From IMG/VR virus record IMGVR_UViG_2671180892_000010: 38,640 nucleotides of DNA. The stretch is one strand, 5' to 3'. Shown in pieces: positions 22,370-38,640 of this stretch (the stretch's first letter is position 1; each line of letters opens with the position of its first letter). This DNA comes from a virus (Duplodnaviria; Heunggongvirae; Uroviricota; Caudoviricetes). The translations under genes were made by a program, and so were the position numbers. The notes beneath the pieces were generated by a model that was not told the origin of the DNA, made no database searches, and saw nothing but the letters and a program-made list of their open reading frames with translations.

Positions 22370-22393
22370 GCCACTCTGTAGGGAGTGGCTTTT
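22370..22393 (+). terminator. intrinsic terminator after the small plus-strand ORF
   Basis: GCCACT-ctgtaggg-AGTGGC followed by TTTT. Confidence 0.5.
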
Positions 22394-22601
22394 GTAATGG
22401 CAATAAAAAGCCCCGCGAATGCGAGGCTAAATCCTGGTATTTGTAATGACTGGCTCTTATCTCAACGCAGCCCCTTACCGCGCGCAAGATGCTCAATATC
22501 AAGCATCAGCAATGAGATGTTTAATCTGGATTCACTCCAGAAGTGATCACCATCCTGTCTACAGAGCCAGATGTGAAGGATGATGAGTAAAATTATCGCT
22601 A

Positions 22602-23069
22602 TCATCGAAGGCATTGCGTCCTGATGTATTCCTGAAGCGTTCTCAGTGCTGTTTGGTCGCGGATAATTCCGTCCCGGATACCGAGAACGTTTCGTCCAGC
22701 AACTGGAGAGAGTTCGACGGTGGCATCATTGCCCATGCCGGAGGCGCTGGAGGTTTCGGCTGAGGATGGCACAGGGCATTTTCCTTTGACGAACACCCGA
22801 CCACCATTATCAAGCTTGCGCCGAAGAGCATCATTTTCAGCTTTCGCATCAGCTAACTCCTTCGTGTATTTAGCATCGAGTGCATCAGCAGAACGCTGGC
22901 GCTGCTGCATGTCAGTAATGGTGGCGGTCGCCTGCTTCAGCTCACTGACTTTTTTATCTCGCTGTTCTTTGTAGGCGATGGCGTTATCACGGTAATGATT
23001 GACCGCCCACGACAGGCAGACGATGATGCAGATAACCAGAGCGGAGATAATCGCGGTTACTCTGCTCAT
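22602..23069 (-). CDS. Rz: i-spanin Rz
   Basis: [40 protein letters not shown]..., near-identical to the lambda Rz N-terminus; ATG overlaps the endolysin stop. Confidence 0.9.
22643..22849 (-). CDS. Rz1: o-spanin Rz1, embedded in the +1 frame of Rz
   Basis: [44 protein letters not shown]: lipobox VVGC followed by a Pro-rich segment, wholly inside Rz. Confidence 0.8.
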
Positions 23070-23563
23070 TGTTGCCCCCACAAACAGACTTCACGCTCAA
23101 TCTCACGACGAGTCATCAGGCCTTTCCATTGCTTACCGCCAGCGTATATCCAGCGACGTAGCTGGTCACATGCGCCTTTGATATCGCCCTGGTTTATTTT
23201 GCGAAGAAGCGTCGATGTTCTGAAATTGCCAGCACCCACGTTGTAGACGAACGAGTAAAGAGCGCCGCGCGTTGTTTCCGGTATATCGACTTTGATGTAC
23301 GGGTTAATTTGTCTGGCAACCGTGGCAAGGTCTTTATTCAGGAGGGCTTTGCATTCTGCTTCGGTATACGTTTTACCGAGCATGATGTCTTTTCCGGTGT
23401 GTCCGTGACATACAGTCCATACGCCAACGATATCTTTGTATGGTATGTAGCTGACACCTTCCAGGCCATCGTCACCACTTGGGCCAGTGATTAACACTGA
23501 TGCTATAGCAATTGCTCCGCCACCAATAGCAGCAGCAACTGCTTTTCGTAATGATGGAGGCAT
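23066..23563 (-). CDS. SAR (signal-arrest-release) endolysin, lysozyme family
   Basis: N-terminal Gly/Ala-rich weakly hydrophobic segment [20 protein letters not shown], then a lysozyme E/D/T catalytic region; phage 21 R-like. Confidence 0.85.
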
Positions 23564-23778
23564 TATTCACCTCTCGCAGCCTTGCGCTTATCTTCTTTAA
23601 TCTTGAAATAAAGGTTTGTCAGGTACGTCAGCAGGCCAAATACCAGGCTACCCAGCACACCTATTGCTGCCCACTGTGAGGGCGTGACTTTATCGAGCAG
23701 CTGTAAAAACCAGTAACCGGCACTACCTGCTGAGGTGCCATAGGCGACACCCGTTGTTAACTTATCCATGGATTTCAT
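23563..23778 (-). CDS. pinholin (S21-like) with dual-start motif
   Basis: [71 protein letters not shown], close to phage 21 S; M-K-S-M dual start; GAGGTGGGG RBS. Confidence 0.85.
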
Positions 23779-23815
23779 AACCCCACCTCGCAGATGCGGG
23801 TGCTGTGTAATGGAA

Positions 23816-23839
23816 ATAAAAAGGCCACCTGACGTGGCC
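23816..23839 (-). terminator. intrinsic terminator between the methyltransferase and the holin
   Basis: Minus-strand GGCCAC-GTCAG-GTGGCC followed by TTTTTATTT. Confidence 0.55.
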
Positions 23840-23845
23840 ACCAAA

Positions 23846-24898
23846 TTATTTCCCCACCAGCTCGTTTATCTCTTTCACTGTCTGGTTAAACCGCTCTGAC
23901 TCAAGCTCAACACCTAAGGCCCGACGCCCCAGCGCCATTGCTGCTTTTATTGTGGAACCGGATCCCATAAAAAAATCAGCAACCAGATCACCAGGTCGAC
24001 TACTGGCATTGATTATTTGCCTGAGCATATCCGCCGGTTTCTCACACGGATGTTTACCCGGGTAGAACTGAACGGGTTTATGCATCCAGACATCGGTATA
24101 AGGCACGGAGACTGATACGGAGAAATAGCGCCGGAGAGATTTAAACTCATCCAGCAATTCAGAATATTTGCGATTCAGTGAATCATAAGATGCCACCAGC
24201 TGGTGGTGTGGTTGTTCCAGTTGTTGTTCCTGAAACTTCTCTGCCGCTATACGGGAAAACAGTGCCTGTAACTTCCGATAGTCAGCCTCATTCGGCAACT
24301 GCCACTGACTGGCACCAAACCAGTGGGAAACCATATTTTTCTTACCTGTGGCTTCGGCAATTTGTTTTGCCGTTATACCCAGTTCGGCACGAGCATCCCT
24401 GAAATACGAAATCAGCGGTGCCATTATGTGCTGTTTGAGTTCCCTTTCTTTTGCCGCATAGCCGTCACTTTTGCCGCGATATGGCCCCTGGTAATGTTCA
24501 GCAAACAGAACGCGCTCTGTGGCTGGAAAATATGCACGCAGACTTTCTTTATTACACCCATTCCAACGTCCGGACGGCTTCGCCCAGATGATATGGTTAA
24601 GCACGTTGAAACGTTCACGCATCATGATCTCAATATCAGATGCCAGGCGATGCCCACAGAACAGGTAAAGGCTTCCGGCAGGTTTTAACACCCGCCAGAA
24701 CTGGGCCAGACAGTGGTCCAGCCACTTAAGGTAATCTTCGTCCCCTTTCCACTGATTGTCCCAGCCGTTGGGTTTCACCTTGAAGTACGGCGGATCGGTA
24801 ACAATCAGGTCAATGGAATCATCAGGCAGGGACTGAATAAAATGCAGGCAATCAGCGTTGATTAAATCAACACTGTTTATTTTTACAGTATTTTTCAT
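23846..24898 (-). CDS. orphan DNA methyltransferase, beta class (N6-adenine or N4-cytosine)
   Basis: 350 aa; catalytic motif IV DPPY (IVTDPPYF) near the N-terminus and SAM-binding motif I (FMGSGST) near the C-terminus; no restriction enzyme partner nearby. Confidence 0.85.
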
Positions 24899-25048
24899 GG
24901 ATCAGTAAGCGTAACTCTGGTAGGCTCACTCTGCTTTTGCGCTAAAGCAGTGGGCCGTGGTTCGCTTGTGACCAGTAAGCATGAGCGAATGGCTGGCAGG
25001 TGCTACCAACACCCACCAGCCGCCCATTTTCACAGCAGGAAACCGCCA

Positions 25049-25276
25049 TTACTGGCAGCGTCTGAATTTATTCCCGTACCCGCCGTTATCCTTCGCCAGA
25101 CCCGCCAGAACTAACTGAGTCAGTATTAACTGGCACCGGGCTTCGCTTACTCCGGTAGTTCTCGTCATCATGCGTGGCGTTACCCACTTGTCAGCAGGTA
25201 AGAAATGAAGGACTGCGGCGGCGGTTTCTGTCATATCTTGCTGTTTTAGCATGTCTTTTTCCCTTCTGGTTAACAT
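25049..25276 (-). CDS. hypothetical small protein (possible winged helix)
   Basis: 75 aa ORF; the internal ATG at 25252 has the better RBS (AAGGGA); lies between the lipoprotein moron and the methyltransferase. Confidence 0.4.
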   Translation of the reverse strand: MLTRREKDMLKQQDMTETAAAVLHFLPADKWVTPRMMTRTTGVSEARCQLILTQLVLAGLAKDNGGYGNKFRRCQ

Positions 25277-25373
25277 GACATACCAATAACTCTTGTCTAA
25301 AAAGCCAGCAAGATAAAAAGTCAGTATTCACGACCACCAGCGTGTTTACTGTACTGCACCAAGTTTACGGGTA

Positions 25374-25399
25374 CAAAAAACCCGCTCAGTGGCGGGTTG
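25374..25399 (-). terminator. intrinsic terminator downstream of the lipoprotein gene
   Basis: AAAAAACCCGC-tcagtg-GCGGGTT; the minus-strand transcript gets hairpin plus U-run. Confidence 0.7.
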
Positions 25400-25475
25400 C
25401 TATCACAGCTATATATTTACTTATTATGCCGTTACTAACATTTATCTTCGACATATAATCGAAAACAAGGTTTGC

Positions 25476-25901
25476 TTAAAACTCTGCTTTCATTTTATCC
25501 GGGAATTTTTTATTTGCAGCATAATAACTACCAAGTACATAAGCGTTCATTTGCTGCTCTACATCAACCCGACATGCCGCACTAGAACAAGCTCCACTGA
25601 TAAGCCCAAAAGAACTCCCTTTAGCAGAGAGATCAGCTTTGATTTCCTCTACAGTGTTTTTCCCCATAGCAACTACACACCCTGTCACAATATATCTAGC
25701 TTTCACATCATCCATGCTAAGGATAGTAGTTTTCGCAATTTTGCTGTATCCATCATTTTTATAAACATCCATGGCAAACGCACGGCAATCTGTATAATAC
25801 GGACTTGCTTTAACTTGCGAATACTCAGGTAATTTCATACCTGCACAACCAACTAAACAAAAACCTATCGCTGCTATTAATACCTTTTTCATTACAGTCA
25901 T
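25476..25901 (-). CDS. lipoprotein of unknown function (late-operon moron)
   Basis: MTVMKKVLIAAIGFCLVGCAG...: signal peptide with lipobox LVGC; the gene and its flanks are visibly AT-rich compared with the neighbouring phage genes. Confidence 0.7.
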   Translation of the reverse strand: MTVMKKVLIAAIGFCLVGCAGMKLPEYSQVKASPYYTDCRAFAMDVYKNDGYSKIAKTTILSMDDVKARYIVTGCVVAMGKNTVEEIKADLSAKGSSFGLISGACSSAACRVDVEQQMNAYVLGSYYAANKKFPDKMKAEF

Positions 25902-26050
25902 AACCTAGAAGCATCATTGAAACTAATTTATTAAATAACCATCGAGTTTCTGGAATACAGACGTTAACCATCTCTCCAAAATCTAAAAGATAATAAGAAA
26001 AAATGTTTAACGCACCAATCCATTTCATAGTTTCATGAGACATCAGGCAC

Positions 26051-26078
26051 AAAAAAACCCGCTCAGCGGCGGGTTTTT
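26051..26078 (-). terminator. tR'-like terminator downstream of the Q-dependent late promoter (bidirectional hairpin)
   Basis: AAAAAAACCCGC-tcagcg-GCGGGTTTTT, nearly identical to the hairpin at 25374..25399. Confidence 0.7.
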
Positions 26079-26121
26079 GACATTTACCAACGGTAGACAT
26101 ACAAGGCCCATCGTTGAGAAA

Positions 26122-26150
26122 ATCTTATCCATATTTTTTGAAAAATGCAA
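26122..26150 (-). promoter_or_regulatory. candidate late promoter PR'
   Basis: Minus-strand TTGCAT, 17-nt spacer, TAAGAT, about 35 nt after the Q stop and about 45 nt before the tR'-like hairpin. Confidence 0.35.
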
Positions 26151-26181
26151 GTATCACGTCGACATCTTCGGCGAAAATTAT

Positions 26182-26934
26182 CTATCTTGTCACTTTTCTC
26201 AATTGCGATTCAGCATACGCTTCTTCCTGCCAGCACTTTGTAACCAGTTTATTAATAACGTCTGCATATCCTTTGTACCACTGATAATCCGTCAGGTCCG
26301 GTACCAGTTTCTGGACATGATGCCGCGCCAGTGTGGTTGGTAAACGGCTAAACCGGTTGCCATTGCAACGCCCACAAATCTTATAAACAGGCACACCATG
26401 AAGCTGGGTTCTTTTTTCATCCAGGACAATACCTTTACCCTTACACCCTCTGCACGCTGTGCTGACTTCTCCCTTACCATGGCAATGCTGACATAGTTCC
26501 TTCACCCACTCTTCCTTGATAACAGATTCCCCGCTTCTGGAGTGTTTCACCACTTCGCGCAATACATTATGAAATCCAGTACCAGCACAATGCTCACAGC
26601 GAGCCTTACTTGCCGCAGACCTGGAATAATCAGCAAAGGCAAAATTCACAAGGTAAGGGATGATCTGTAACCGGGTTTCTTCACTCAATTTGTTCAATGT
26701 CGGGTTATCCAGTGCCATCGCGTAATTGAGCAGACCTTCAATCGCAAATTGAGGATCCTGAACACCAACTTTTGCCAGGAATAAGGCAAACCCAAGCGGT
26801 GCTTTCGACTGCACCATCCCCTGCGCAGCCATCACATCCGTAATCGTTAAACCACCTGAGCCTGTCGCCGGTGCGTCATCGCTCAATTTTGGAGATTTTG
26901 GGGAGTAATATTTTGGTAAGGCTTCAAGGTTCAT
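26182..26934 (-). CDS. Q: late antitermination protein Q
   Basis: MNLEALPKYYSPKSPKL... with Cys-rich zinc-binding motifs (CEHCAGTG, CQHCHGKG, CRGCKGKG, CGRCNG); sits immediately upstream of the late promoter/terminator pair. Confidence 0.8.
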   Translation of the reverse strand: MNLEALPKYYSPKSPKLSDDAPATGSGGLTITDVMAAQGMVQSKAPLGFALFLAKVGVQDPQFAIEGLLNYAMALDNPTLNKLSEETRLQIIPYLVNFAFADYSRSAASKARCEHCAGTGFHNVLREVVKHSRSGESVIKEEWVKELCQHCHGKGEVSTACRGCKGKGIVLDEKRTQLHGVPVYKICGRCNGNRFSRLPTTLARHHVQKLVPDLTDYQWYKGYADVINKLVTKCWQEEAYAESQLRKVTR

Positions 26935-26947
26935 GCTCGTTCTCCAC

Positions 26948-27943
26948 TTACGCCAGTACGCCAATTGCCAGCGCACGATCGATAAAACGAAATATCAGCT
27001 CCAGCTGGGAGCCATACTTCTCTTCAAATGCCACGGTATCCGCATGCAGCTCGTCGTGATGCTTTCTGCACAAAGGCAACACAAAGAGGTCATGCGCTTT
27101 TGTACCCATTCCACCCTGACCGTGGCCTATCAGGTGGTGGGGATCATCAGCAGGCTTTCCACAACATGCACACGGCTGTGTCTTAACCCAGCGCGTGTAC
27201 TTTTCATTAACCCAGCGGCGGCGTTTTGGGCGTAACATAAAAGACTCCGGCGACTCCGGATCCACTTTCAGCGCCAGCACCTTTTTTGCCTTATCCTGGA
27301 TGATGCTGGTGGCAGGAACCGAAGGCACAAGGTCACTTTCCCGGGTGACAGACGGCACAACAGGCTTTGGTAATCTCAGTGCCTTACGGGCTGCACTTTC
27401 CGGTAAGGCATCCGCCAGGTCATTACGAATCAGCCACCAGCACAGTTCCGGCATTGTCACAACGTGACTATCATCAAAACCGAGATCCCGACGCACAACA
27501 GACAACACCCAGCGGGCACAGTTATCCGTTGCCATTGATTCCAGCCGTTCCGTGAACTGATCGCGCAGCTGGTTATCGCAGTGCCAGCACAGACGGATTG
27601 CGCCCGGAGCGTGTCGCATTGTGGTCATGTTCTCGCTGTGCCAGTCGGAATGAGGCCACTGGCAGCCTTTTTCACGACGTAACCAGCTTTCAAGACATTC
27701 CACGCCACCAGCACGACGGATCACTGCCTCATTGCGGAACACGGCCCGAACGGCAGGATCATCCGCCAGCGGTTGTGATGCCGCCGGAACGGCACCACTG
27801 GCGAAAGATGAATAACGTTCCGGCTCAGGCTCCAGCAGAACACGCCCCTGCATAAACAGGGGCATCAGCTCTGAACCTGGCCTGAACAATACGATCCCCA
27901 TACGCGGGGCAATTTCAGGGGTCAGTAGTGCTCTCACGGTCAC
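26948..27943 (-). CDS. DUF968-type protein with HNH-like zinc finger
   Basis: 331 aa; C-terminal ...QPCACCGKPADDPHHLIGHGQGGMGTKAHDLFVLPLCRKHHDELH... Confidence 0.65.
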   Translation of the reverse strand: MTVRALLTPEIAPRMGIVLFRPGSELMPLFMQGRVLLEPEPERYSSFASGAVPAASQPLADDPAVRAVFRNEAVIRRAGGVECLESWLRREKGCQWPHSDWHSENMTTMRHAPGAIRLCWHCDNQLRDQFTERLESMATDNCARWVLSVVRRDLGFDDSHVVTMPELCWWLIRNDLADALPESAARKALRLPKPVVPSVTRESDLVPSVPATSIIQDKAKKVLALKVDPESPESFMLRPKRRRWVNEKYTRWVKTQPCACCGKPADDPHHLIGHGQGGMGTKAHDLFVLPLCRKHHDELHADTVAFEEKYGSQLELIFRFIDRALAIGVLA

Positions 27944-27944
27944 C

Positions 27945-28754
27945 TCAATGAACGGTATCGAGCAGCTTTAACAGCTCAGGGAATCGGGATTCGAAGAAAT
28001 GCGGCTGCGTCTCGCGCGGATTTGCAGGACTGGTGATGTTCTTGCCGAACATGCAGCCTTTCGCCGTCAGCGACCAGAATTTTTTGATGTTGTTAATCGC
28101 GGTACGGCTGTATCGTTCGCGTTGTTCAACGATCCCCAGCTTCACCATCTGGTGATATGCCTGATTAGCCGTCAGGCGGATACCATACTGCTTCAGCAGT
28201 GCACTCAGCGACAGCGTGGGGCGACTTGAGCCATCAGGCGCGTCAGCAGGAGCATCAATGGCATAGCGCGGTGCCAGATTCGGTAAGCCAACAGCCTCCT
28301 GAAGCTTCTGACAGGCTCCAAGCACTGATGAGTTAGACAGATTTAATTCCCGGCGCATAAAGTCCAGCAGGATCACGCCAGCCTGCATCTTGTCAGCAGC
28401 CTGTCCGGATAATTTTTCCGGTGCGCTGGTTACCATGTCGAAAGTACGGATCACCTTCAGATGGAATGACGGGCTGATCCACATTGCATAGGCATACACC
28501 AGTTCTTTGCAGACATACGTCCCCTGGTTATTTCCGCCATTAATGACGCTAACTGGTTGATTTTGTTCCAGAGGCGGAATTCCACCCTCGGTGAAAAGTT
28601 GTTCAATCAATTCACAGGTTTGCTTATTGGAGAGCCAGTATTTCGGGCGGTTTTTTTGTTCTCCCCCGGCTGCCCTGTGCAGATCGTTCAGGCTGTAACG
28701 CCCATAAGCATCACGACGAACTTCAATACCATCAATGACCATCAGATTATTCAT
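27945..28754 (-). CDS. KilA-N domain protein
   Basis: MNNLMVIDGIEVRRDAYGRYSLNDLHRAAGGEQKNRPKYWLSNKQTCELIEQL..., typical KilA-N N-terminus. Confidence 0.7.
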   Translation of the reverse strand: MNNLMVIDGIEVRRDAYGRYSLNDLHRAAGGEQKNRPKYWLSNKQTCELIEQLFTEGGIPPLEQNQPVSVINGGNNQGTYVCKELVYAYAMWISPSFHLKVIRTFDMVTSAPEKLSGQAADKMQAGVILLDFMRRELNLSNSSVLGACQKLQEAVGLPNLAPRYAIDAPADAPDGSSRPTLSLSALLKQYGIRLTANQAYHQMVKLGIVEQRERYSRTAINNIKKFWSLTAKGCMFGKNITSPANPRETQPHFFESRFPELLKLLDTVH

Positions 28755-28773
28755 ACTTCGTTTCTCCTCTTGA

Positions 28774-29163
28774 TCAGGCGGCTGCACCCGCCGGTTTCTC
28801 ATACTTACTGATAGTGATCTCGACCTTCCCTTTCTGGATAACCGGTCCCCACTCCACCAGCATTCTTTTCACCTGGCTGTCGTCTTCCCACACCCCCGCG
28901 TGGGTCAGGGCGTCAAACAGCGCCTTGTTATAGTTGTCCAGATCGCGGATCCGGTTATCCGGAGGAAACAACACGATCTCCACTGAAGCAGGTGCCGACG
29001 TTGGTTTTGGCAGACGACGTAACTGCTCAACTATTGCTGCGCACGCCGCGCTCTGGAATTTGCGCCCCGCCGCGCTTATCAGGCTTTTACCAGCAAACGC
29101 CCCTTTATTAGGGTGTCGCCAGTACGTATTCACGCTGGGCGGGAAAGGTAGGATCAGTTTCAT
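28774..29163 (-). CDS. rusA: Holliday junction resolvase RusA
   Basis: 129 aa, MKLILPFPPSVNTYWRHPNKG... ...DLDNYNKALFDALTHAGVWEDDSQV..., RusA family. Confidence 0.88.
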   Translation of the reverse strand: MKLILPFPPSVNTYWRHPNKGAFAGKSLISAAGRKFQSAACAAIVEQLRRLPKPTSAPASVEIVLFPPDNRIRDLDNYNKALFDALTHAGVWEDDSQVKRMLVEWGPVIQKGKVEITISKYEKPAGAAA

Positions 29164-29486
29164 ACTTTCAGGCCTCTCTCATGTAACCAGTGGGTTGCAC
29201 GCAGCCTGGCGTTTTCCTCACCGGCAAGCAGTGAGCGGATAATCCCGACCGCCTCGCTGTCGTCGTCCTTCACCGCGGTATGAAGCGTTATCCCCCGGGC
29301 CACGCCACGCTTTATCGTGATGACGCCTTTTTTCTCCAGTGCGCGAAGATGCTCCACCGCTGCATTCACTGAACGGTATCCCAGCATGGTTGCCACCTCC
29401 TGATTGGTTGGCGGGAAGCCACGTTCTTTCTGGTAAGAAATCAGCATATCCAGCACCTGCTGCTGGCATTGAGTTAACGTCGTCAT
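29160..29486 (-). CDS. LexA N-terminal DNA-binding-domain protein lacking the S24 peptidase domain
   Basis: MTTLTQCQQQVLDMLISYQKERGFPPTNQEVATMLGYRSVNAAVEHLRALEKKGVITIKRGVARGITL aligns with E. coli LexA residues 1-70; the remaining ~40 aa carry no Ser/Lys peptidase motifs. Confidence 0.6.
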   Translation of the reverse strand: MTTLTQCQQQVLDMLISYQKERGFPPTNQEVATMLGYRSVNAAVEHLRALEKKGVITIKRGVARGITLHTAVKDDDSEAVGIIRSLLAGEENARLRATHWLHERGLKV

Positions 29487-30136
29487 GCCGCCATCTCCCT
29501 GACCAGTTTTTCCGCCTGCTGGCGAACCTGCACCAGAAAGGCTTCACCACATGCCTCAAGTTCATCGCGCCCGATGTAGCTGATTGCCGGTCCCTTCCAG
29601 GTCTTGTCGAAAACAGCAATAGCACCAGCGAAGAAAGCGCCTGTCGGCACCTGCTTCTCATCCTTCGGGATAAACCAGGCAGGCAGTTCAAAACCAATAC
29701 GCCCGCGAATAAAAGCAATATGGTCCGCATCTTCCGGCCACCACACTTCGCTGGTGGCAGCTTTGATCAGGAAAACATAGCGCCCGCCCTTATCACGCAT
29801 GGCACTGGCATGTTTCATGATGTAACGCATGCCGGTGATGTATTGCCCCTCATGCTGACTGGCGCGGCTGTATGGGGGATTACCAAAGGCAGCACCTTTA
29901 AGCTCCGCAAGACGTTCTGACCAGTCATGCGCCAGCGCGTTATCTTCCGCCGTGTAATACGCGGCACATTTGGCGTTATCACCGTCAGTAAACAGATCCA
30001 GAACAAACGGGCCAAACAGGGTGTTAATTCCCCAGAAAATGTTGTCCGGCGTGCGCCACTGATCGCCCACTTCCTTCAGTTCATGGGCTGGTTTGTTCCG
30101 CAGTTCCACCAGCGCCTGGCAATATTTATTACTCAT
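29483..30136 (-). CDS. phage Dam-type N6-adenine DNA methyltransferase
   Basis: NPPY catalytic motif (AFGNPPYS); start MSNKYCQALVELRNKPAHELKEVGDQWRTPD... Confidence 0.8.
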   Translation of the reverse strand: MSNKYCQALVELRNKPAHELKEVGDQWRTPDNIFWGINTLFGPFVLDLFTDGDNAKCAAYYTAEDNALAHDWSERLAELKGAAFGNPPYSRASQHEGQYITGMRYIMKHASAMRDKGGRYVFLIKAATSEVWWPEDADHIAFIRGRIGFELPAWFIPKDEKQVPTGAFFAGAIAVFDKTWKGPAISYIGRDELEACGEAFLVQVRQQAEKLVREMAA

Positions 30137-30630
30137 TAAGCCCCCACGTAATTCCCTGACAGATACCACTCTTCACCCGATGCAGCGCGCTTGCTGCTTT
30201 TCCGTAAGCACCGCTCACGACGCGCCAGAAAATTGTTTCGTTCTGGCTGGGAGTGGCTTTCACGGAATGCCGCCATCCACACGGTTGCAGCACGACGGTA
30301 TAAGCCCCTGAACTCCAGTTCTTCAGCCTGGCGGGTCAGGCACAAAATCACCCGTGGATCGTTAGTGCCGACATAGAAATTGCGCACAGGTCTGGTTTCT
30401 CGAACTGGTTGTGGTTCCGGTTCCTGCGCTCTCTCAGTCAGGCGCGGGAAATGTCTGCGTGTATCTCCTTCACAACGGTGAGCCACACGCCCACTCTGAC
30501 GTAACTTGCTTGCTGACTGCAGAACGCGCTGCCGTGAGTAACCTGCAAAAGCATCCGCAATGTCTCCGGAAGTACACCCCGGATGGGCTTCAATGAATTT
30601 CTGAACTTCATTCAAAAGACTCATGATCAC
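30136..30630 (-). CDS. PerC-family putative transcriptional regulator
   Basis: C-terminal ...AEELEFRGLYRRAATVWMAAF... resembles the PerC signature; 164 aa, the same size as K-12 YfdN as far as recalled. Confidence 0.45.
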   Translation of the reverse strand: MIMSLLNEVQKFIEAHPGCTSGDIADAFAGYSRQRVLQSASKLRQSGRVAHRCEGDTRRHFPRLTERAQEPEPQPVRETRPVRNFYVGTNDPRVILCLTRQAEELEFRGLYRRAATVWMAAFRESHSQPERNNFLARRERCLRKSSKRAASGEEWYLSGNYVGA

Positions 30631-31457
30631 CCCCTGAATCCTGCCGGGATCTGGCTGTAGTCCACGTTGTCGTAACTGGCTTTGAAGTACGGGTCCTCGC
30701 GTCTGGCTGCAGATACCGCAGGAACTTCCCAGGATTCTTCGAAATGACGATCCGGACCAAAGAACGTGACAGCCTGTTTCACAAATTGTGTGCCGCTGTT
30801 ACCCATCGCAGATACCCAGCCCGCGTAGCGTTTCACACCTTCCAGCATGGTTTCGGGTTTTACCCCCTCATTCAAACGAGCTTTCCAGGCTTTGAAGGCT
30901 GCAGATTTTGAATTGCCACCAGCACGTTTGGGGTATGCCAGCCATGCCTGCTCAAACTCCGGAGAGTATTCCGGTCGGTTTGAACGAACTCGCACGGACT
31001 CATCAGCAGATGCACCAACAGCTATTGGTTCATTGACTGGTTCTTTGACTGGTTCTTTGACTGGTTCAAAAGAGTGACTGGTTCTGGGTGAATCTCCTGC
31101 ACCACCCCCTGGTGCAACTCCTGCACTACCTGGTGAATTTGCTGCACCAGATAGTGAATTATTTGCACTACCCCCTAGTGAATCTCCTGCACCATCAAGA
31201 TGAAGGAGATAGATATTACTTGAGTTACCTTTTTCACCTTTCCGGGTGACTTTTTTTACCAGCCCGGAATCACAAAGGGCCGCAATATGATTCATCACAG
31301 AACGTTTGCTAATCTCGCACTGGTCAGCAATATGCTGGTAGCTGGGCCAGCACTCGCCCTGATCGCTGGCATTATCAGCCAGCTTGATCAGAACCAGTTT
31401 TCGCAATGGATTACCCACTCGAATTTTCATCGCTTTAACCATCAGCTCCATACTCAT
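30627..31457 (-). CDS. putative replication initiation protein (N-terminal winged helix, low-complexity linker, C-terminal domain)
   Basis: N-terminal ...LRKLVLIKLADNASDQGECWPSYQHIADQCEISKRSVMNHIAALCDSGLVKKV... helix-turn-helix; iteron-like DNA repeats lie inside the gene. Confidence 0.6.
   Translation of the reverse strand: MSMELMVKAMKIRVGNPLRKLVLIKLADNASDQGECWPSYQHIADQCEISKRSVMNHIAALCDSGLVKKVTRKGEKGNSSNIYLLHLDGAGDSLGGSANNSLSGAANSPGSAGVAPGGGAGDSPRTSHSFEPVKEPVKEPVNEPIAVGASADESVRVRSNRPEYSPEFEQAWLAYPKRAGGNSKSAAFKAWKARLNEGVKPETMLEGVKRYAGWVSAMGNSGTQFVKQAVTFFGPDRHFEESWEVPAVSAARREDPYFKASYDNVDYSQIPAGFRG
31030..31200. repeat. iteron-like tandem repeats inside the replication gene (candidate ori)
   Basis: Four 12-bp units (TTGACTGGTTC) from 31033 to 31084, then five ~21-bp units (GTGAAT...TGCAC...) to 31196, followed by an AT-rich stretch to about 31260. 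Confidence 0.5.
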
Positions 31458-31690
31458 GCTGCACCTCCGAGATGCTTCATGTTTTTTCCGGAGCGAAAGG
31501 CTATAAGCGGCATACTGACGCGGTAATTACGGCCCAGCGGTTCACAAATCACCTTCTGACATTCACGGTCAACCAGGCTGACACGTAGAACATGCCCTGC
31601 TGGCGTGGTGTACCACTGCCCAACTGTGGGTGTTGATATTTTTTTACGCTGAAATAAACGGTAAATGTTGAGGAGCAACGGATTAAGCAT
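31454..31690 (-). CDS. hypothetical protein, 78 aa
   Basis: ORF with start and stop overlapping both neighbours; no recognisable motifs. Confidence 0.4.
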   Translation of the reverse strand: MLNPLLLNIYRLFQRKKISTPTVGQWYTTPAGHVLRVSLVDRECQKVICEPLGRNYRVSMPLIAFRSGKNMKHLGGAA

Positions 31691-32519
31691 GACGATGCCC
31701 TCCGCTGATATTCAGGAGACGGTGAATATGAAAATTAGCCTTATCCGCCAGACGAATACGTTCAGCTTGCAAGTTAAGAAGGGTTTCTACCAGAACCTGA
31801 TGTGCCTGCGGATCCGAAAGAGTTACCTTGCGCAGAGCACGTAGTGCAGTTGTTACATAACTGAGTTTATGTAAGTCTTCATCATTCAGACGAGTGAGGG
31901 CTGGGACAGTAGCCATGATGGCAGCCTCCTTGATCGGTGAAATACTTCCACCACCGGAAACGCCAATTTCGCTGGTGGTGAACTGAACGGGGTTGGCGTA
32001 ACCGGTGATCAAGGAAACCGGCGCATCTTTCGATGCCCCCGCCCAGCCCACCATAACTTTGATGTGAGCAAATGCGGACGATAAAAAAGACGCTGGCGCG
32101 TCATATATCGCCTTGATCAATTCCAGGACGCCAATCCCGGCACCCGCTTTATAAGGTGCCTGAACAGTGTAACGTCCCGGAATGGCAGAATCAATGTGCT
32201 GGTGGTCCTTCACACTCAACAAAATCACGCCTGAATTTCCACAAAGGACTAAAGCACTCATGCGGGTAGTCTTTGCGAAGATAGATAACGCGCTGTGTTT
32301 CTGGCTCCCAACGAATAACATGAACATAAAGTCCTCTTCCGTCACGAAACCAGCGGTTAAGTTCCTGCACAACTCGCCCCCCACAGTCAGGTAAAGTTCT
32401 CTGTGGTTACTTACAGCCAGGTGATTTGGTAATCTGCATTCATGCCGTAACAACAGGTGTTCAGCGACGCTGACCACCAGCTGTTGCGACAAACGGTTAT
32501 TTGCCGTTAAACTGTTCAT
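31683..32519 (-). CDS. hypothetical protein, 278 aa, unknown function
   Basis: ATGA overlap with the upstream gene; Gly-rich segments (VLCGNSGVILLS, GAGIGVLELI, GVSGGGSIS) but no Walker A motif or other recognised catalytic motif. Confidence 0.5.
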   Translation of the reverse strand: MNSLTANNRLSQQLVVSVAEHLLLRHECRLPNHLAVSNHRELYLTVGGELCRNLTAGFVTEEDFMFMLFVGSQKHSALSIFAKTTRMSALVLCGNSGVILLSVKDHQHIDSAIPGRYTVQAPYKAGAGIGVLELIKAIYDAPASFLSSAFAHIKVMVGWAGASKDAPVSLITGYANPVQFTTSEIGVSGGGSISPIKEAAIMATVPALTRLNDEDLHKLSYVTTALRALRKVTLSDPQAHQVLVETLLNLQAERIRLADKANFHIHRLLNISGGHRHA

Positions 32520-33079
32520 GCGTTAGTTTCTCCACAGACACAAAACGCCACGACGCCCGGAGCTGCACACTCGCGGGCGTCACTCTTTTCTGGAGCGCAA
32601 AAGATTTTGTAGACCAGTGCTGCATGCTCCTGGAGCTTCGAAATTGACAGATACAACTCATCATTAATTGCTGTCTGCTCGTGTGGCTCCACTACCCCAT
32701 CTTCGATTGCCGAACGAATCTGCTTTGAGTAACTCCCGATCTGTTCGATGACTTCCAGCAGGCGCTGGTTTATATCGGCGTTCTCTACTTCCTCAATTTC
32801 AGGAAGCGATACAAACACCCCACCAGCAGACTGTGCGACAGCATCCGCAATGTAGTGAGTGCCAGCCGCGCGCTGTAAAATCATTGCCCATCCCAGCGGG
32901 AAAATCTGATCGCCATCTGCACGAAGGCGGTTGAATAAAGCGTTCTCTGTTACATCCAGCCACTCAGCAGCTTCAGCGTAACCCCCCGGCAACGCCGCGA
33001 TAGTTTTTCTGACAGCTTTCACGTACCACTCAGGCTGTTTTTCTACTTTCCAGTGATGCTTACCCACGGTTAGCCTCAT
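32516..33079 (-). CDS. hypothetical protein, 187 aa, in the cII slot (possible YdaT-like regulator)
   Basis: First gene after cro; assigned by position only, sequence not confidently matched to any family. Confidence 0.45.
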   Translation of the reverse strand: MRLTVGKHHWKVEKQPEWYVKAVRKTIAALPGGYAEAAEWLDVTENALFNRLRADGDQIFPLGWAMILQRAAGTHYIADAVAQSAGGVFVSLPEIEEVENADINQRLLEVIEQIGSYSKQIRSAIEDGVVEPHEQTAINDELYLSISKLQEHAALVYKIFCAPEKSDARECAAPGVVAFCVCGETNA

Positions 33080-33110
33080 CGTTCTGTGGTTAAAAATTGA
33101 AGGTGTTCTG

Positions 33111-33311
33111 TTAATCTTTCGGATAGATATCCGGTCTTAAGTCAGATTTCGTAATTGCACCTGACGTGCATTGCTCAAGTTTTTTAGCCAGCACAAAACT
33201 GGCTTTTTTATAACCATTGAAAACCAGCCGTAAGTAGCCTGGTGTTGAGCCAACTTTTCCGGCCAACTCGCCCTGCTGTTCTTTGGTTAAAGAGTCCCAA
33301 TACGCTTTCAT
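33111..33311 (-). CDS. cro: Cro-like repressor (YdaS/Cro family helix-turn-helix)
   Basis: MKAYWDSLTKEQQGELAGKVGSTPGYLRLVFNGYKKASFVLAKKLEQCTSGAITKSDL...; ATG at 33311 with a GGAGGT RBS; divergent from cI. The longer track ORF to 33614 overlaps the operators and the cI start. Confidence 0.7.
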   Translation of the reverse strand: MKAYWDSLTKEQQGELAGKVGSTPGYLRLVFNGYKKASFVLAKKLEQCTSGAITKSDLRPDIYPKD

Positions 33312-33401
33312 ACAATATGTACCTCCGGTATACATATTACATGATTGAGATGAACCTTCAAGATACTTGTACCTTATCGGTACAAAGGTTTTAATTTCTT
33401 T
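33312..33401. promoter_or_regulatory. cI-cro intergenic control region (candidate OR operators, PR and PRM)
   Basis: Inverted repeats AATATGTA-N9-TACATATT (33314..33338) and TTGTACC-N5-GGTACAA (33367..33385); minus-strand TTGAAG-N16-TAATAT candidate PR; cI ATG at 33402 has no Shine-Dalgarno sequence. Confidence 0.55.
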
Positions 33402-34076
33402 ATGAAAACAGTCCATGACATCCGGCGGTCTAACGCCAGAAAACTGAGAGATGGTGTTGGCGGGAATTCTTCCTTTGCCACCATGATTGATCGCGAGCCA
33501 ACCCAGACCAGCAGGTTTATGGGAGATGGTGCTACTAAAAATATCGGTGACAGCATGGCACGGCACATCGAAAAATGTTTCGACCTGCCTGTCGGATGGC
33601 TTGATCAAGAACACCAGACAACAAACATCACAAAAAAACCTGATGTTTCAATTACTAACAAACAAATAACGTTAGTCCCTGTCATATCATGGGTACAGGC
33701 CGGAGCATGGAAAGAAGTTGGCTATTCTGAGGTTGATTTGAGCACAGCAGAAACTTATCCCTGCCCTGTACCCTGTGGCGAAATGACTTATATCTTGCGG
33801 GTGATTGGTGATTCAATGATTGATGAGTACCGCCCGGGAGACATGATTTTTGTAGATCCTGAAGTCCCTGCCTGCCACGGTGACGACGTTATTGCATTGA
33901 TGCACGATACAGGCGAAACCACCTTTAAGCGGTTGATAGAAGATGGAACACAGCGTTACCTCAAAGCATTAAACCCAAACTGGCCTGAACCTTACATTAA
34001 GATCAACGGTAATTGCTCTATAATTGGCACAGTAATTTTCTCAGGAAAACCAAGAAGATACAAAATAAAGGCCTAA
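33402..34076 (+). CDS. cI: CI-like prophage repressor (helix-turn-helix plus S24 LexA-like peptidase domain)
   Basis: 224 aa; C-terminal ...LRVIGDSMIDEYRPGDMIFVDPEVP... autocleavage domain; divergent from cro. Confidence 0.88.
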   Translation: MKTVHDIRRSNARKLRDGVGGNSSFATMIDREPTQTSRFMGDGATKNIGDSMARHIEKCFDLPVGWLDQEHQTTNITKKPDVSITNKQITLVPVISWVQAGAWKEVGYSEVDLSTAETYPCPVPCGEMTYILRVIGDSMIDEYRPGDMIFVDPEVPACHGDDVIALMHDTGETTFKRLIEDGTQRYLKALNPNWPEPYIKINGNCSIIGTVIFSGKPRRYKIKA

Positions 34077-34087
34077 TCAATATTTAT

Positions 34088-34110
34088 AACCTGCTTCGGC
34101 AGGTTTTTTT
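34088..34110 (+). terminator. intrinsic terminator after cI
   Basis: AACCTGC-TTCG-GCAGGTT followed by TTTTTTT (UUCG tetraloop). Confidence 0.85.
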
Positions 34111-34114
34111 ATAC

Positions 34115-34147
34115 TTGACAATGTACCCTTGAGATACATAATGTATC
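34115..34147 (+). promoter_or_regulatory. PL-like promoter with overlapping palindromic operator
   Basis: TTGACA (34115..34120), 16-nt spacer, CATAAT (34137..34142); perfect 15-bp palindrome GATACATAATGTATC (34133..34147) overlaps the -10. Confidence 0.6.
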
Positions 34148-34577
34148 TAAAAGAAACATGTCACAGGCAAGATTAAACAAAATTTGGTTGTAACACGGCG
34201 TATGGCACATGCGTCGTTAGCGGTCTGGGGACGTTAAAGGGGACAATCCACTCCTTGCTCGGGCAAACAAACCAGGTAGCCGGAATGTGCAAGTCAATGA
34301 TGATGCTGATAAGACGCCTAACCAGCGTGGCGATCCGGTTTGACGCCTGGGAAGAGACCAGGGTGCAACGATGAGGGCATTTATGGAGCCGCGACAAAGT
34401 GTGGTGCCGTAACTGGCTAAGTGCTCTCAGCGTTGTGGTGAATGCGCAGGCTGATGCGCGAAAGACATTGCAGCTAATGCGGAAAAGAGCTGTTCGGCGG
34501 GGCAATTAAACGCCCGAGAGAGTCTGAAATAACCGCAAGCCGGAGATCAGCACCGGTCACCACAACAGCCACTGCTT

Positions 34578-34626
34578 TGGCGGTACCAGTTTGTACACTT
34601 GCTTCCGGCTGGTACCGCTCTTTTTA
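34578..34626 (+). terminator. candidate intrinsic terminator (tL-like) upstream of the early-left genes
   Basis: 10-bp stem GCGGTACCAG / CTGGTACCGC with a 19-nt loop, followed by TCTTTTT. Confidence 0.5.
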
Positions 34627-34762
34627 CAAAACAGAGAAGAGCATCACCGGACGACGGGCTCATAACCCAATCCATCCGGGCTGCTGCCACCGCAGGTGTT
34701 CTTCTCTGTTTTGTGGAGAAACCAACCGACCTTGCAGGGTCGATATGATGAGGAGCAGCAAA

Positions 34763-35125
34763 ATGGCTAGCGAACGCAGTACTGATGTGCAGGCATTTAT
34801 CGGGGAGCTGGACGGCGGCGTATTTGAAACCAAAATCGGCGCAGTTCTCAGTGAAGTCGCTTCAGGTGTGATGAACACGAAAACCAAAGGTAAGGTCTCA
34901 CTCAACCTGGAAATCGAACCATTTGATGAGAACCGTGTGAAAATCAAACACAAACTCTCATATGTTCGCCCGACTAACCGCGGGAAAATTTCCGAAGAAG
35001 ACACCACCGAAACGCCGATGTATGTCAATCGCGGTGGTCGCCTGACTATTCTGCAGGAAGACCAGGGACAATTACTGACTCTTGCCGGTGAACCTGACGG
35101 AAAACTCCGCGCAGCAGGTCATTAA
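34763..35125 (+). CDS. hypothetical early protein (size and synteny consistent with YfdP)
   Basis: 120 aa from the ATG at 34763 (MASERSTDVQAFIGELDGGVF...), AGGAG RBS; the track ORF from 34577 is an in-frame extension through the terminator. Confidence 0.55.
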   Translation: MASERSTDVQAFIGELDGGVFETKIGAVLSEVASGVMNTKTKGKVSLNLEIEPFDENRVKIKHKLSYVRPTNRGKISEEDTTETPMYVNRGGRLTILQEDQGQLLTLAGEPDGKLRAAGH

Positions 35126-35190
35126 TACCGTTCTTAATTAACCGATTATTTATCTCATCACTGAATATCTTTATATAGTGAGGACTTATT

Positions 35191-36015
35191 ATGTCTCAGA
35201 ACTTAGACGCAACCGCAATTAATCAAATCCATGCCCTTATTTCTGCTCAGGGTGTTAATGAAATTATCAGTAAGATTGGTGCCGATGCTGTGGCATTGCC
35301 TGAGAATTTCCGCATTCATGATCTGGAAAAATTTAATTTAAATCGCTTCCGTTTCCGTGGTGCGCTTTCCACTGCCAGCATCGATGACTTTACCCGTTAT
35401 TCTAAAGATCTTGCAGATGAAGGCACCCGCTGCTTTATCGATGCCGATAATATGCGAGCAGTCAGTGTGCTTAACCTGGGTACTATTGATGAACCAGGTC
35501 ACGCAGATAACACCGCCACTCTCAAACTGAAAAAGACAGCACCGTTCTCTGCCCTGTTGTCTGTTAACGGCGAGCGTAACTCCCAGAAGTCACTGGCAGA
35601 ATGGATTGAAGACTGGGCCGACTACCTTGTGGGCTTTGATGCTAATGGTGACGCCATTCAGGCAACCAAAGCGGCTGCGGCGATCCGTAAAATCACAATT
35701 GAAGCGAACCAGACCGCTGATTTTGAAGACAATGACTTCAGCGGCAAACGCTCCCTGATGGAGTCTGTCGAAGCGAAGACCAAAGACATTATGCCAGTGG
35801 CATTTGAATTTAAATGCGTTCCGTTTGAAGGCCTGAAAGAACGTCCGTTTAAATTACGCCTCAGCATTATCACTGGCGATCGTCCTGTACTGGTTCTGCG
35901 CATTATTCAGCTGGAAGCGGTGCAGGAAGAAATGGCTAACGAATTTCGTGATCTGCTTGTTGAGAAATTTAAAGACAGCAAAGTAGAAACCTTTATTGGT
36001 ACTTTCACCGCCTGA
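35191..36015 (+). CDS. yfdQ: YfdQ-like protein (DUF2303)
   Basis: 274 aa, [21 protein letters not shown]...; length and neighbourhood match the CPS-53 yfdQ-yfdR-yfdS cluster. Confidence 0.7.
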
Positions 36016-36142
36016 TTTCATTACTGCAAATGCCCCTGCGGGGGCATTTATGGAAACATAATTTACTCAATAATCGCCGGATGGTGAGGGCTTCCTTTTA
36101 CCAGAATTCAGCGCGGTGCAGCGCATATACGTGGAGAACAAA

Positions 36143-36679
36143 ATGTCATTTATTAAAACTTTTTCCGGGAAGCATTTTTATTATGACAAGATAAATAAAG
36201 ACAACATCGTTATTAACGATATCGCGGTTTCCCTTTCAAATATCTGTCGCTTTGCAGGACATCTTTCACACTTCTACAGCGTCGCCCAACATGCGGTGCT
36301 TTGCAGCCAACTGGTACCGCAGGAATTTGCTTTTGAAGCGTTAATGCATGATGCAACAGAAGCGTATTGCCAGGATATTCCCGCTCCACTGAAACGCCTT
36401 CTTCCTGACTATAAACGGATGGAAGAAAAAATAGACGCCGTAATCCGTGAGAAATACGGGTTACCCCCGGTTATGAGCACGCCCGTGAAATATGCCGATC
36501 TCATCATGCTGGCAACTGAACGCCGCGATCTCGGGCTTGATGATGGCTCTTTCTGGCCTGTACTGGAAGGTATCCCGGCAACAGATATGTTCAAAGTTAT
36601 TCCACTGGCACCGGGCCATGCCTATGGGATGTTTATGGAACGTTTTAACGAGTTATCGGAGTTACGCAAATGCGCATGA
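36143..36679 (+). CDS. yfdR: HD-domain 5'-deoxynucleotidase YfdR-like
   Basis: 178 aa from MSFIKTF...; HD motif region ...AGHLSHFYSVAQHAVLCSQ... ...LMHDATEAYCQDIPAPLK... Confidence 0.75.
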   Translation: MSFIKTFSGKHFYYDKINKDNIVINDIAVSLSNICRFAGHLSHFYSVAQHAVLCSQLVPQEFAFEALMHDATEAYCQDIPAPLKRLLPDYKRMEEKIDAVIREKYGLPPVMSTPVKYADLIMLATERRDLGLDDGSFWPVLEGIPATDMFKVIPLAPGHAYGMFMERFNELSELRKCA

Positions 36680-37032
36680 ATGTTTTCGAAATGGAAGGGT
36701 TTCTTCGCGGGAAATGTGTACCGCGAGATCTGAAAGTGAACGAAACAAATGCTGAGTACCTGGTACGTAAATTCGACGCGCTTGAAGCTAAATGTGCGGC
36801 ACTGGAAAACAAAATAATACCAGTGTCAGCTGAACTGCCACCTGCAAATGAAAGTGTTCTGTTATTTGATGCTAACGGAGAAGGCTGGCTAATTGGCTGG
36901 CGTTCTCTCTGGTACACCTGGGGACAAAAAGAAACCGGAGAATGGCAGTGGACATTTCAGGTCGGGGACCTTGAAAACGTCAATATCACTCACTGGGCAG
37001 TAATGCCGAAAGCACCGGAGAATAAGAAATGA
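36670..37032 (+). CDS. DUF551-like protein (YfdS-like)
   Basis: 120 aa; Trp-rich C-terminus ...GEGWLIGWRSLWYTWGQKETGEWQWTFQVGDLENVNITHWAVMP. Confidence 0.55.
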   Translation: MRMNVFEMEGFLRGKCVPRDLKVNETNAEYLVRKFDALEAKCAALENKIIPVSAELPPANESVLLFDANGEGWLIGWRSLWYTWGQKETGEWQWTFQVGDLENVNITHWAVMPKAPENKK

Positions 37033-37244
37033 GCGTGATAAAAACTCATACAGGAATTGTTATTACCCGAAACGGTCCGCAGGTAAAAAAACTGCACCAG
37101 ACAAAGCGGATGTGGGTCGTCGGAAAAAACGAGTTTTACCACAAAGAAACCGGACGCCGCCACTTTGCAGAAAATACGCGCCGCCGACTGCTCCTGGACA
37201 GCATCAGGCCAATTAAACAGGTAGCAACCAGAGAACAAAATTAA
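37029..37244 (+). CDS. hypothetical protein, 71 aa
   Basis: ORF coupled to the preceding gene (4-nt overlap), basic; possibly YfdT-like. Confidence 0.4.
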   Translation: MSVIKTHTGIVITRNGPQVKKLHQTKRMWVVGKNEFYHKETGRRHFAENTRRRLLLDSIRPIKQVATREQN

Positions 37245-37303
37245 TTATCAGGACTGAAATTTGATATTACTGCCCGTGTGCAGCGGGCTAAGTGGAGAAA
37301 CAT

Positions 37304-37510
37304 ATGCTGAACCTCGATTGTGTTCCTATCTCAACTTATTGCAAAGAAACTGGCGAAACTCCTGAAGCAATAAACAAACGTGTACAGCGCGGTGTTTGGC
37401 GTGAAGGTGTTCAGGTTTTAAAGGTTGAAGGCGTTAAGGAGAGGTGGATTGATCTTAGTGAGGTTGCAAAATGGGCCAGACAAAACTGCTCAAACTACCG
37501 CGCGGCGTAA
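37304..37510 (+). CDS. xis: excisionase (Xis/AlpA-like winged helix)
   Basis: MLNLDCVPISTYCKETGETPEAINKRVQRGVWREGVQVLKVEGVKERWIDLSEVAKWA...; immediately upstream of and overlapping int. Confidence 0.65.
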   Translation: MLNLDCVPISTYCKETGETPEAINKRVQRGVWREGVQVLKVEGVKERWIDLSEVAKWARQNCSNYRAA

Positions 37511-38640
37511 CAATCAGAAAACACCGTCAGGGAGAAACGATCAATATAACTTTCACCTACAAAGGAGTTAAATGTCGTGAGCCACTTTCCAATCTGGAAG
37601 TAACACCAAAGAACATTAAATACGCCGAGCGTACACTCGGCGAAATTCATAATAAGATCGAAAGGGGAACATTCATTTATGCGGAATATTTTCCCCGTTC
37701 TGCTCGTTTGAAAATTTTTGGTAATGCTGCTGCAGGCAAAACGGTAAAAATGTACCTGGACGAATACCTTGAAATCTGCGAAACGAGAAAACTTTCACCA
37801 TCTACGATTGGTGGTTATAAAAAATGCCGTAGTGCGTTAGCCTCACTCCACATTTGCCCTGCAAGTGAATTAACACCAGCAATCCTGAAAGCGTGGATTC
37901 AAAGCCAGAAAACGACCTTAAAAACAATTCGCAACCAGTTATCTTTCCTGCGGTCAGCACTTGATGAAGCCGTAACCGATGGGGTACTTCAAATTAACCC
38001 CGTATCGTTGGTAACTGCTTCGCGCTACCAAAGTGATAAGTCAGAAGCAGAAAGCAGCTACGTGGTTGATCCGCTATCACCAGCAGAAGTTGATGCATTA
38101 CTAGCAGCAGCCGGAAACAAACAATGGGAGAATCTGTTCCGGTTCGCTATACATACAGGCCTGCGTAGTTCTGAATTATGTGCCCTTCGATGGCGTGATA
38201 TCGACTTTGTTGGAAAAACTGCCCATGTCCAGAGCGCAAGTGTTGTCGGTGTTATCAAAGGAACAAAGACAAAAGCCGGTACTCGTAAAGTCGAACTGAC
38301 AGAAGATGCAATGTTGGCGCTGATAAATCAGAAGCCATTTACATTCATGAAGGATGCTACAGTCTTTGAAGATCCAAAGACCAATAAGCCTTGGGCAAGT
38401 GCTGATGCAATTAGAAAAAAAGCATGGGTGCCAACATTGCGAAAAGCAGGTATTCGTTACAGAAACCCATATCAAACCAGACATACATTCGCCACCAGCC
38501 ATATCAGCCGGGGAGCAAACCTGTTTTGGCTTGCGGTTCAAATGGGTCATAAAGGACCAGAGATGTTATTTAGACATTATGGCTCATACCTCAAAGAATA
38601 TGATGGAAATACATCTTTAAATAGAAAAAATAGATATTAG
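37471..38640 (+). CDS. int: tyrosine site-specific integrase
   Basis: 389 aa; catalytic region ...HTGLRSSELCALRWRDID... ...TRHTFATSHISRGANLFWLAVQMGHKGPEMLFRHYGSY; stop codon is the last triplet of the window. Confidence 0.9.
   Translation: MGQTKLLKLPRGVTIRKHRQGETINITFTYKGVKCREPLSNLEVTPKNIKYAERTLGEIHNKIERGTFIYAEYFPRSARLKIFGNAAAGKTVKMYLDEYLEICETRKLSPSTIGGYKKCRSALASLHICPASELTPAILKAWIQSQKTTLKTIRNQLSFLRSALDEAVTDGVLQINPVSLVTASRYQSDKSEAESSYVVDPLSPAEVDALLAAAGNKQWENLFRFAIHTGLRSSELCALRWRDIDFVGKTAHVQSASVVGVIKGTKTKAGTRKVELTEDAMLALINQKPFTFMKDATVFEDPKTNKPWASADAIRKKAWVPTLRKAGIRYRNPYQTRHTFATSHISRGANLFWLAVQMGHKGPEMLFRHYGSYLKEYDGNTSLNRKNRY

Follow-up and report, generated by a model that had tools for sequence, protein, structure and literature searches.

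A K-12-type yfdP-yfdQ-yfdR-yfdS cassette in the predicted early-left operon of a lambda-like prophage

We analyzed the IMG/VR virus record IMGVR_UViG_2671180892_000010 (Caudoviricetes), a stretch of 38,640 nucleotides that is hereafter called the window, and focused on a gene cassette that lies close to its 3' end. A preliminary description, made from the letters alone, had equated open reading frames (ORFs) of 120, 274, 178, and 120 amino acids with the yfdP-yfdQ-yfdR-yfdS cluster of Escherichia coli K-12, and all four genes were indeed found, with protein identities of 98-100%. They belong to a run of five close-packed ORFs on the + strand at 34763-37244, each of which is preceded by a Shine-Dalgarno-like sequence. 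The five ORFs are listed below, together with identities obtained by BLASTP of the window ORFs against the proteins of E. coli K-12 MG1655 (CPS-53 region).

34763-35125, + strand: yfdP, 120 amino acids, YfdP family PF27127, 119/120 residues identical to K-12 b2359, phrog_204
35191-36015, + strand: yfdQ, 274 amino acids, DUF2303/PF10065, 273/274 residues identical to K-12 b2360
36143-36679, + strand: yfdR, 178 amino acids from ATG, HD-domain phosphohydrolase, 174/178 residues identical to K-12 b2361
36670-37032, + strand: yfdS, 120 amino acids, C-terminal DUF551, 117/117 aligned residues identical to K-12 b2362
37029-37244, + strand: unnamed basic ORF, 71 amino acids, isoelectric point 11.5, phrog_1226 (E = 2e-40; family labelled function unknown)

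Expressed as percentages, the identities to the K-12 proteins were 99% for YfdP, 99.6% for YfdQ, 98% for YfdR, and 100% for the aligned part of YfdS. At the DNA level, positions 34744-37020 formed one collinear ungapped block of 2277 bp with K-12 at 97.4% identity, and both cassette spacers were conserved along with the gene order. The four genes differed from their K-12 counterparts by 43 synonymous and 6 non-synonymous changes; the ratio of non-synonymous to synonymous substitution rates (dN/dS) was ~0.04, which indicates strong purifying selection on all four. The cassette in the window is that of the K-12 cryptic prophage CPS-53/KplE1, with an agreement far beyond chance. The preliminary description had made its assignment depend on similarity to K-12 YfdQ and YfdR, for which BLASTP returned the 273 and 174 identical residues given above. 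Its range of 35191-37244 holds yfdQ, yfdR, and yfdS, but yfdP at 34763-35125 falls upstream of the start of that range, and the last ORF within it is the 71-amino-acid ORF and not yfdT. This ORF fills the slot held by yfdT in K-12 and showed no similarity to YfdT. In addition, we placed the start of yfdR at the ATG at 36143 rather than at the upstream GTG at 36116 used in the program-made ORF list. A search with the PADLOC defence models matched no family for any of the five proteins, and an NCBIfam scan gave nothing useful for YfdP, YfdQ, or YfdS. The 2277-bp cassette was detected at a coverage of at least 80% in 2446 of the 5426 complete E. coli genomes (~45%), in up to seven places per genome. 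It is thus an already known, very widespread, and ordinary cassette that has been named, annotated, and studied in K-12.

The surroundings of the cassette were examined with the help of a prophage of E. coli C7, which is 99.7% identical to the window over 21933-38640 and 100% identical across the cassette region. The following features flank or divide the five ORFs.

33402-34076, + strand: gene for a cI-like repressor (YmfK/LexA family, S24 peptidase), Pfam Peptidase_S24 with E = 1.5e-26, annotated in C7 as ymfK, LexA family
34088-34105, + strand: intrinsic terminator-like hairpin ending the repressor transcript (terminator scan: 7-bp stem, then TTTTTTT)
34115-34142, + strand: candidate early-left promoter, with operator-like sequences to 34148 (promoter scan: TTGACA, 16 nt, CATAAT; 11/12 consensus)
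34150-34762, + strand: non-coding leader of ~610 nt with two terminator-like hairpins
36028-36049, + strand: GC-rich hairpin with UUUAUGG between yfdQ and yfdR (RNAfold, -16 kcal/mol), conserved in K-12
37304-37510, + strand: excisionase (xis), phrog_2917 with E = 1.6e-45, called 'excisionase' in C7 by the Prokaryotic Genome Annotation Pipeline (PGAP)
37471-38640, + strand: tyrosine integrase (int), Pfam Arm-DNA-bind_2 and Phage_integrase, stopping at the window end

The repressor gene marks the immunity region upstream of the operon, and an operator-like sequence, ATGTACCCTTGAGATACAT, lies within and over the spacer of the candidate promoter at 34121-34139. This sequence is a copy of one in the cI-cro spacer: the operator-like sequence of the promoter is a 20-nt repeat of ATGTACCTCCGGTATACATA at 33317-33336. 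A 17-bp palindrome, AGATACATAATGTATCT, at 34132-34148 is unique in the window, where 0.05 copies would be expected by chance. Because the promoter overlaps the operator-like repeat, the genes behind it would be silent in the lysogen and turned on at induction or infection. The placement between a leader and xis-int that had been proposed for the cassette agrees with these features, since the repressor gene, terminator, promoter with operator-like repeat, leader, xis, and int are all co-oriented on the + strand. Judged from the sequence, the location of the cassette in a repressor-controlled early-left operon of a lambda-like prophage is supported.

The leader at 34150-34762 contained no convincing ORF, and PGAP called no gene in the near-identical C7 locus. 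It appears structured (minimum free energy z = -3.5), and two hairpins with U-runs, at 34579-34626 (-24 kcal/mol) and 34630-34712 (-35 kcal/mol), stand just ahead of yfdP. ORF inspection and Rfam revealed no N-like ORF, no nut site, and no known antitermination RNA in the leader, and Rfam had no match anywhere in 33000-38640. Expression of the early-left operon may need some read-through mechanism past the leader hairpins. The third hairpin, at 36028-36049, is a possible attenuator that would divide a yfdPQ from a yfdRS sub-module, and the equivalent site is annotated as 'terminator' in phage Ayreon. Pieces of the leader recur beside phage tRNA genes: the part at ~34195-34438 has an 83.5% match immediately ahead of a tRNA-Arg gene in a prophage of E. 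coli O22:H8 strain 154, and the part at ~34420-34565 has a 96% match inside the tRNA array of plasmid pAPEC201603, one of 487 places on plasmids in all. ARAGORN found no tRNA in the window. The leader may represent a mobile module without coding function or an RNA not described so far.

Interference of this cluster with DnaA-dependent initiation upon overexpression, which the preliminary description had mentioned, matches the work of Noguchi and Katayama in 2016 (PMC4776307). In that study, multicopy yfdQRS or yfdQRT inhibited initiation at oriC and suppressed the overinitiation of hda-185, the minimal inhibitory set being yfdQ and yfdR with either yfdS or yfdT, and yfdP being dispensable. Purified YfdR bound DnaA, with Phe46 of domain I being important, and moderately inhibited the binding of DiaA and DnaB to DnaA-oriC complexes (PMC4776307). 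The authors put forward, as a suggestion only, that yfdQRST once aided phage growth (PMC4776307), and the later literature restates the DnaA effect without new data (including PMC12122000). Of the minimal inhibitory set, yfdQ, yfdR, and yfdS are intact in the window and yfdT is absent.

Putting the locus and these experiments together, we consider with a probability of about 80% that the window carries the K-12-type cassette in its native early-left operon, where it would act through YfdR and DnaA as a brake on host initiation. Transcription would start a short distance downstream of the gene for the cI-like repressor, at the near-consensus promoter on which the operator-like repeat lies, and the transcript would comprise the leader with its two hairpins, yfdP, yfdQ, the intergenic hairpin, yfdR, yfdS, the 71-amino-acid ORF, xis, and int. 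On the basis of the K-12 experiments, YfdR would bind DnaA domain I around Phe46 and compete with DiaA and DnaB, so that initiation at oriC is dampened, and an in vivo effect would need YfdQ and YfdS (or YfdT) beside YfdR. Most likely, the cassette would temporarily hold back initiation on the host chromosome while the lytic programme runs; host takeover is its most likely, though putative, role in our analysis. Several points speak against this. Deletion of yfdQRST in K-12 gave no replication phenotype, the replication effect was seen solely with multicopy or overexpressed genes, and the inhibition of DiaA and DnaB binding by YfdR was only moderate (PMC4776307). YfdR-like HD proteins are also found in many lytic phages without YfdPQ, and DnaA binding may not be the main job of the family. 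Furthermore, it is not certain that the proposed promoter drives expression, given the terminators in the leader and the fact that no N-like antiterminator was found. The window does show the native wiring that K-12 has lost, namely a repressor, a promoter with operator, a leader, and then the cassette, and with this wiring, inducible prophages and phages such as mEp460 allow a direct test of the 2016 suggestion that YfdQRS formerly aided the phage as a brake on host initiation.

The distribution of the genes gave a different picture of what the conserved unit is. Distant loci were collected by scanning IMG/VR for degenerate DNA that would encode FFNLG-x5-GH[AG]D, and of the 114 loci obtained, 107 had a YfdQ match. 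YfdP was encoded immediately upstream of YfdQ on the same strand in 97 of the 101 evaluable distant viral loci, and a YfdP-family gene directly upstream of YfdQ was also present in a Xanthomonas phage and in Rhodanobacter, Pseudomonas, and metagenomic prophages. In each distant context with a visible repressor gene, YfdPQ lay downstream of it on the same strand. A YfdR-like HD gene, by comparison, followed YfdQ in 16 of 107 loci, always on the same strand and with extra sequence between. These data show that the cassette is composite, consisting of an ancient, almost obligate P-Q pair found in temperate phages of Proteobacteria and an R-S addition past the hairpin that is specific to a clade; the unit conserved in evolution is YfdP-YfdQ, not Q-R-S. 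DUF2303 comprised 3969 representatives at 50% identity (E <= 0.001). Among 72,556 plasmid records, 23 contained YfdQ, most of these being the size of a phage or wrongly labelled, and its identity as a plasmid leading-region gene was therefore rejected. In the operons carrying YfdPQ, a reverse transcriptase (RVT_1) adjoins a C5 methylase in the Rhodanobacter prophage (10974-12332 of the retrieved locus), and a TROVE/vWA (Ro60-like) protein is encoded in Xanthomonas phage MET23-P3 (2069-3388 of the retrieved locus).

The proteins themselves offered few relatives. YfdQ is a full-length DUF2303 protein (PF10065; 311.4 bits against a gathering score of 26.6, residues 7-272) and is homologous to PDB 9o7m, 'YfdQ Protein' (E = 8e-45), the sole solved relative of YfdQ. 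The source of this entry is a Xanthomonas phage closely similar to MET23-P3, and the 36 YfdQ chains in the entry suggest a large oligomer. PDB sequence searches gave no significant match for E. coli YfdP, Xanthomonas-phage YfdP, YfdS, or the 401-amino-acid neighbour of Xanthomonas YfdQ, and, with no match for YfdP, 9o7m has no visible YfdP partner. Searches of PDB libraries assigned neither YfdP nor YfdQ to a known fold. YfdP was assigned to the recently defined PF27127 by precomputed Pfam data on a 99%-identical cluster representative, and the DUF551 assignment of YfdS (PF04448, residues 50-117) is marginal at 22.2 bits against a gathering score of 22.0. A few database proteins have YfdP and DUF2303 domains in one chain; they are mostly singletons, shorter than both proteins summed, and are probably deletions or frameshift artefacts and not true fusions. 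We found no paper on 9o7m, and papers on DUF2303 give the family in annotation lists only. The solved and apparently unpublished structure suggests that work on YfdQ is under way.

As a tentative alternative to the initiation brake, YfdP-YfdQ might be an ancient two-protein early module with an unmatched fold, probably a large oligomer, and with a new function, such as capturing, as a scaffold, a factor of host replication or repair, or serving as a DNA-end/recombination accessory, and the DnaA effect in K-12 would then be one clade-specific use through YfdR. The pair is restricted to phages and forms a large group (~4000 clusters at 50% identity), which recommends it for functional study, and what it does is the only question worth pursuing here; YfdP-YfdQ as a conserved core is the sole addition to the known picture, the cassette finding itself not being new.

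A further reading, which we regard as rather unlikely, makes YfdP-YfdQ a separate unit for phage DNA ends or recombination, either as an accessory or in protection from nucleases, and thereby a positional analogue of lambda Gam or P22 Abc to which the link with YfdR is secondary. The pair adjoins Erf, a YqaJ exonuclease, and SSB in Xanthomonas-type phages and RecT with an exonuclease in Stx2a phage PA2, and this reading is also favored by the restriction of the YfdQ family to phages, with its rarity on plasmids (23/72,556), and by the large oligomer suggested by 9o7m. A weak sensitivity of the yfdQ deletion to methyl methanesulfonate (MMS) and H2O2, as reported in PMC4776307, points in the same direction. 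The argument from position is weak, however, and we treat this reading as a competitor of the preferred one, not as a conclusion. YfdQ as a replacement recombinase was rejected: since YfdPQ often stands beside Erf or RecT, YfdQ would not be the recombinase itself, which leaves room for an accessory or end-protection role. No similarity in fold or sequence was detected between YfdQ and known single-strand annealing proteins (Rad52/Erf, RecT/Red-beta).

It is likewise doubtful that the cassette acts mainly on nucleotide pools, with YfdR being a deoxynucleoside monophosphate (dNMP) phosphohydrolase that reshapes deoxynucleotide supply or counters pool-based host defences and DnaA binding being a side effect of overexpression. 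The metal-binding residues of the HD domain are kept in YfdR, namely SVAQH (H49), MHD (H69-D70), E73, and KYAD (D119), and they align with those of the HD protein Atu1052 (PDB 2gz4, E = 1.8e-13); none of the four residues out of 178 that differ from K-12 YfdR falls within the HD motif. YfdR belongs to the phage family phrog_318 (E = 2e-109), labelled 'dNMP phosphatase' in PHROGs, and the K-12 protein is named 5'-deoxynucleotidase in RefSeq. Homologues of the YfdR-like HD type were found in 324 phage records, among them those of large lytic phages that lack YfdPQ, and a dNMP kinase is encoded upstream of YfdPQ in the same operon in 31 distant loci. YfdR and YfbR, the E. coli 5'-deoxynucleotidase, have the HD fold and the H...HD...D residues in common, and the HDAxE...DxPxPxK stretch of YfbR also aligns with YfdR. 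However, the two proteins share 22% identity, and YfdR stays below the curated cut-offs for the YfbR family (24.2 against 25.9 bits for PF12917 and 20 against 122 for NCBIfam NF003009) as well as that for Pfam HD_3 (16.9 bits, cut-off 22.5). According to the passage in PMC4776307 that cites Zimmerman 2008, its nucleotide affinities are much below those of YfbR. The description of YfdR as an HD-domain 5'-deoxynucleotidase is supported by the HD residues and the RefSeq name but not by the YfbR-family cut-offs, and the lower affinity also tells against it. The direct and specific binding of purified YfdR to DnaA (PMC4776307), which is known for YfdR only and not for YfbR, further argues against a pool-based role and is the centre of the initiation brake that we prefer.

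Regulation in K-12 differs from that predicted for the window. K-12 is without the repressor, promoter, and leader of the window, and homology starts only at 34744; instead, a junction 19 nt ahead of the yfdP start codon in K-12 connects the gene with iteron-like repeats that belong to a truncated O-like gene. These direct repeats, GACGGGTCAGATTTTGA, are also the four SrsR (YgfI) boxes in the yfdO/yfdP spacer (9400-9520 of the retrieved region). SrsR binds this spacer and activates yfdPQ, handled as an operon of its own, in stationary phase (PMC9181523). Because the boxes were brought next to yfdP by a deletion and the window has no cluster of them, the K-12 regulation would be a secondary state, and the control of yfdPQ by the host seems to have arisen as a side effect when the deletion removed the phage's own promoter. 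Regulation by SrsR in the window was rejected, with no box cluster and one 1-mismatch match elsewhere in the window, at chance level. Stationary-phase activation by SrsR and the phenotypes of K-12 yfdQ and yfdS deletions (Wang 2010 and Rooney 2009, cited through PMC4776307) would favor lysogen-benefit genes that raise host tolerance to peroxide, acid, or alkylation damage over lytic-cycle genes. We consider this very unlikely, both for the reason just given and because the promoter ahead of the cassette in the window bears an operator, which should keep the genes repressed in the lysogen.

Two observations concern the rest of the prophage. The tail-tip J gene (3468-6819, - strand) is split into overlapping ORFs of 826 and 319 amino acids, and comparison with J of E. 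coli C7, which is intact, shows a gap of ~62 nt; the tail assembly of the prophage may be defective, or the split may be an assembly error in the sequence. Directly beyond the integrase end in C7 lies a pair of genes for a DarT single-stranded DNA ADP-ribosyltransferase and a NADAR antitoxin (24174-25490 of the retrieved locus).

Among known systems, CPS-53 shares with the window the same four genes in the same order, with the same spacers and a conserved yfdQ-yfdR hairpin. In CPS-53, however, yfdT, ypdJ, and torI follow downstream and intS stands at the other end, whereas the window has the unrelated 71-amino-acid ORF along with xis and int genes that differ from those of CPS-53: Xis of the window gave no alignment with TorI, and Int had a mere 39-residue motif match with IntS (E = 4e-4) and is essentially unrelated to it. 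Sharing with CPS-53 is confined to the cassette and a second segment at 29870-30702 (97%, yfdM/yfdN-like). The latter includes a PerC-like gene and the first part of the gene for a full-length N6-adenine methyltransferase, and yfdM of K-12 appears to be a truncated remnant of this methyltransferase.

The isolated phages mEp460 (gp35-gp32), Ayreon, cdtI, SfV (orf29-30 region), the Stx2c phages, and ST64B (sb37-sb35) carry the same cassette between the repressor and xis/int. In the E. coli phages of this group the cassette DNA is 97-98% identical to that of the window. The leader is shared by the group as well, whereas other genes (Ea22-like, DUF551, exonuclease, and others) lie between yfdS and xis, and immunity regions vary among the cassette-bearing lambdoid phages. 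The putative early-left operon of the window resembles the PL operon of lambda (N, cIII, kil, gam, bet, exo, xis, int) in its position and orientation relative to the repressor and xis-int and in a promoter overlapped by an operator-like repeat. It differs from the lambda operon in its entirely different cargo: Red/Gam genes are absent, and neither N nor nut was found. The DnaA contact of lambda P is with domain III, and lambda P has a second task in loading DnaB at the origin of the phage; for YfdR, no replication role in the service of the phage is known. Lambda P and the DnaA domain-I binders DiaA, HobA, and SirA have no sequence relationship to YfdR, and all of these proteins, YfdR included, contact DnaA and disturb oriC assembly or helicase loading (PMC4776307, PMC12122000).

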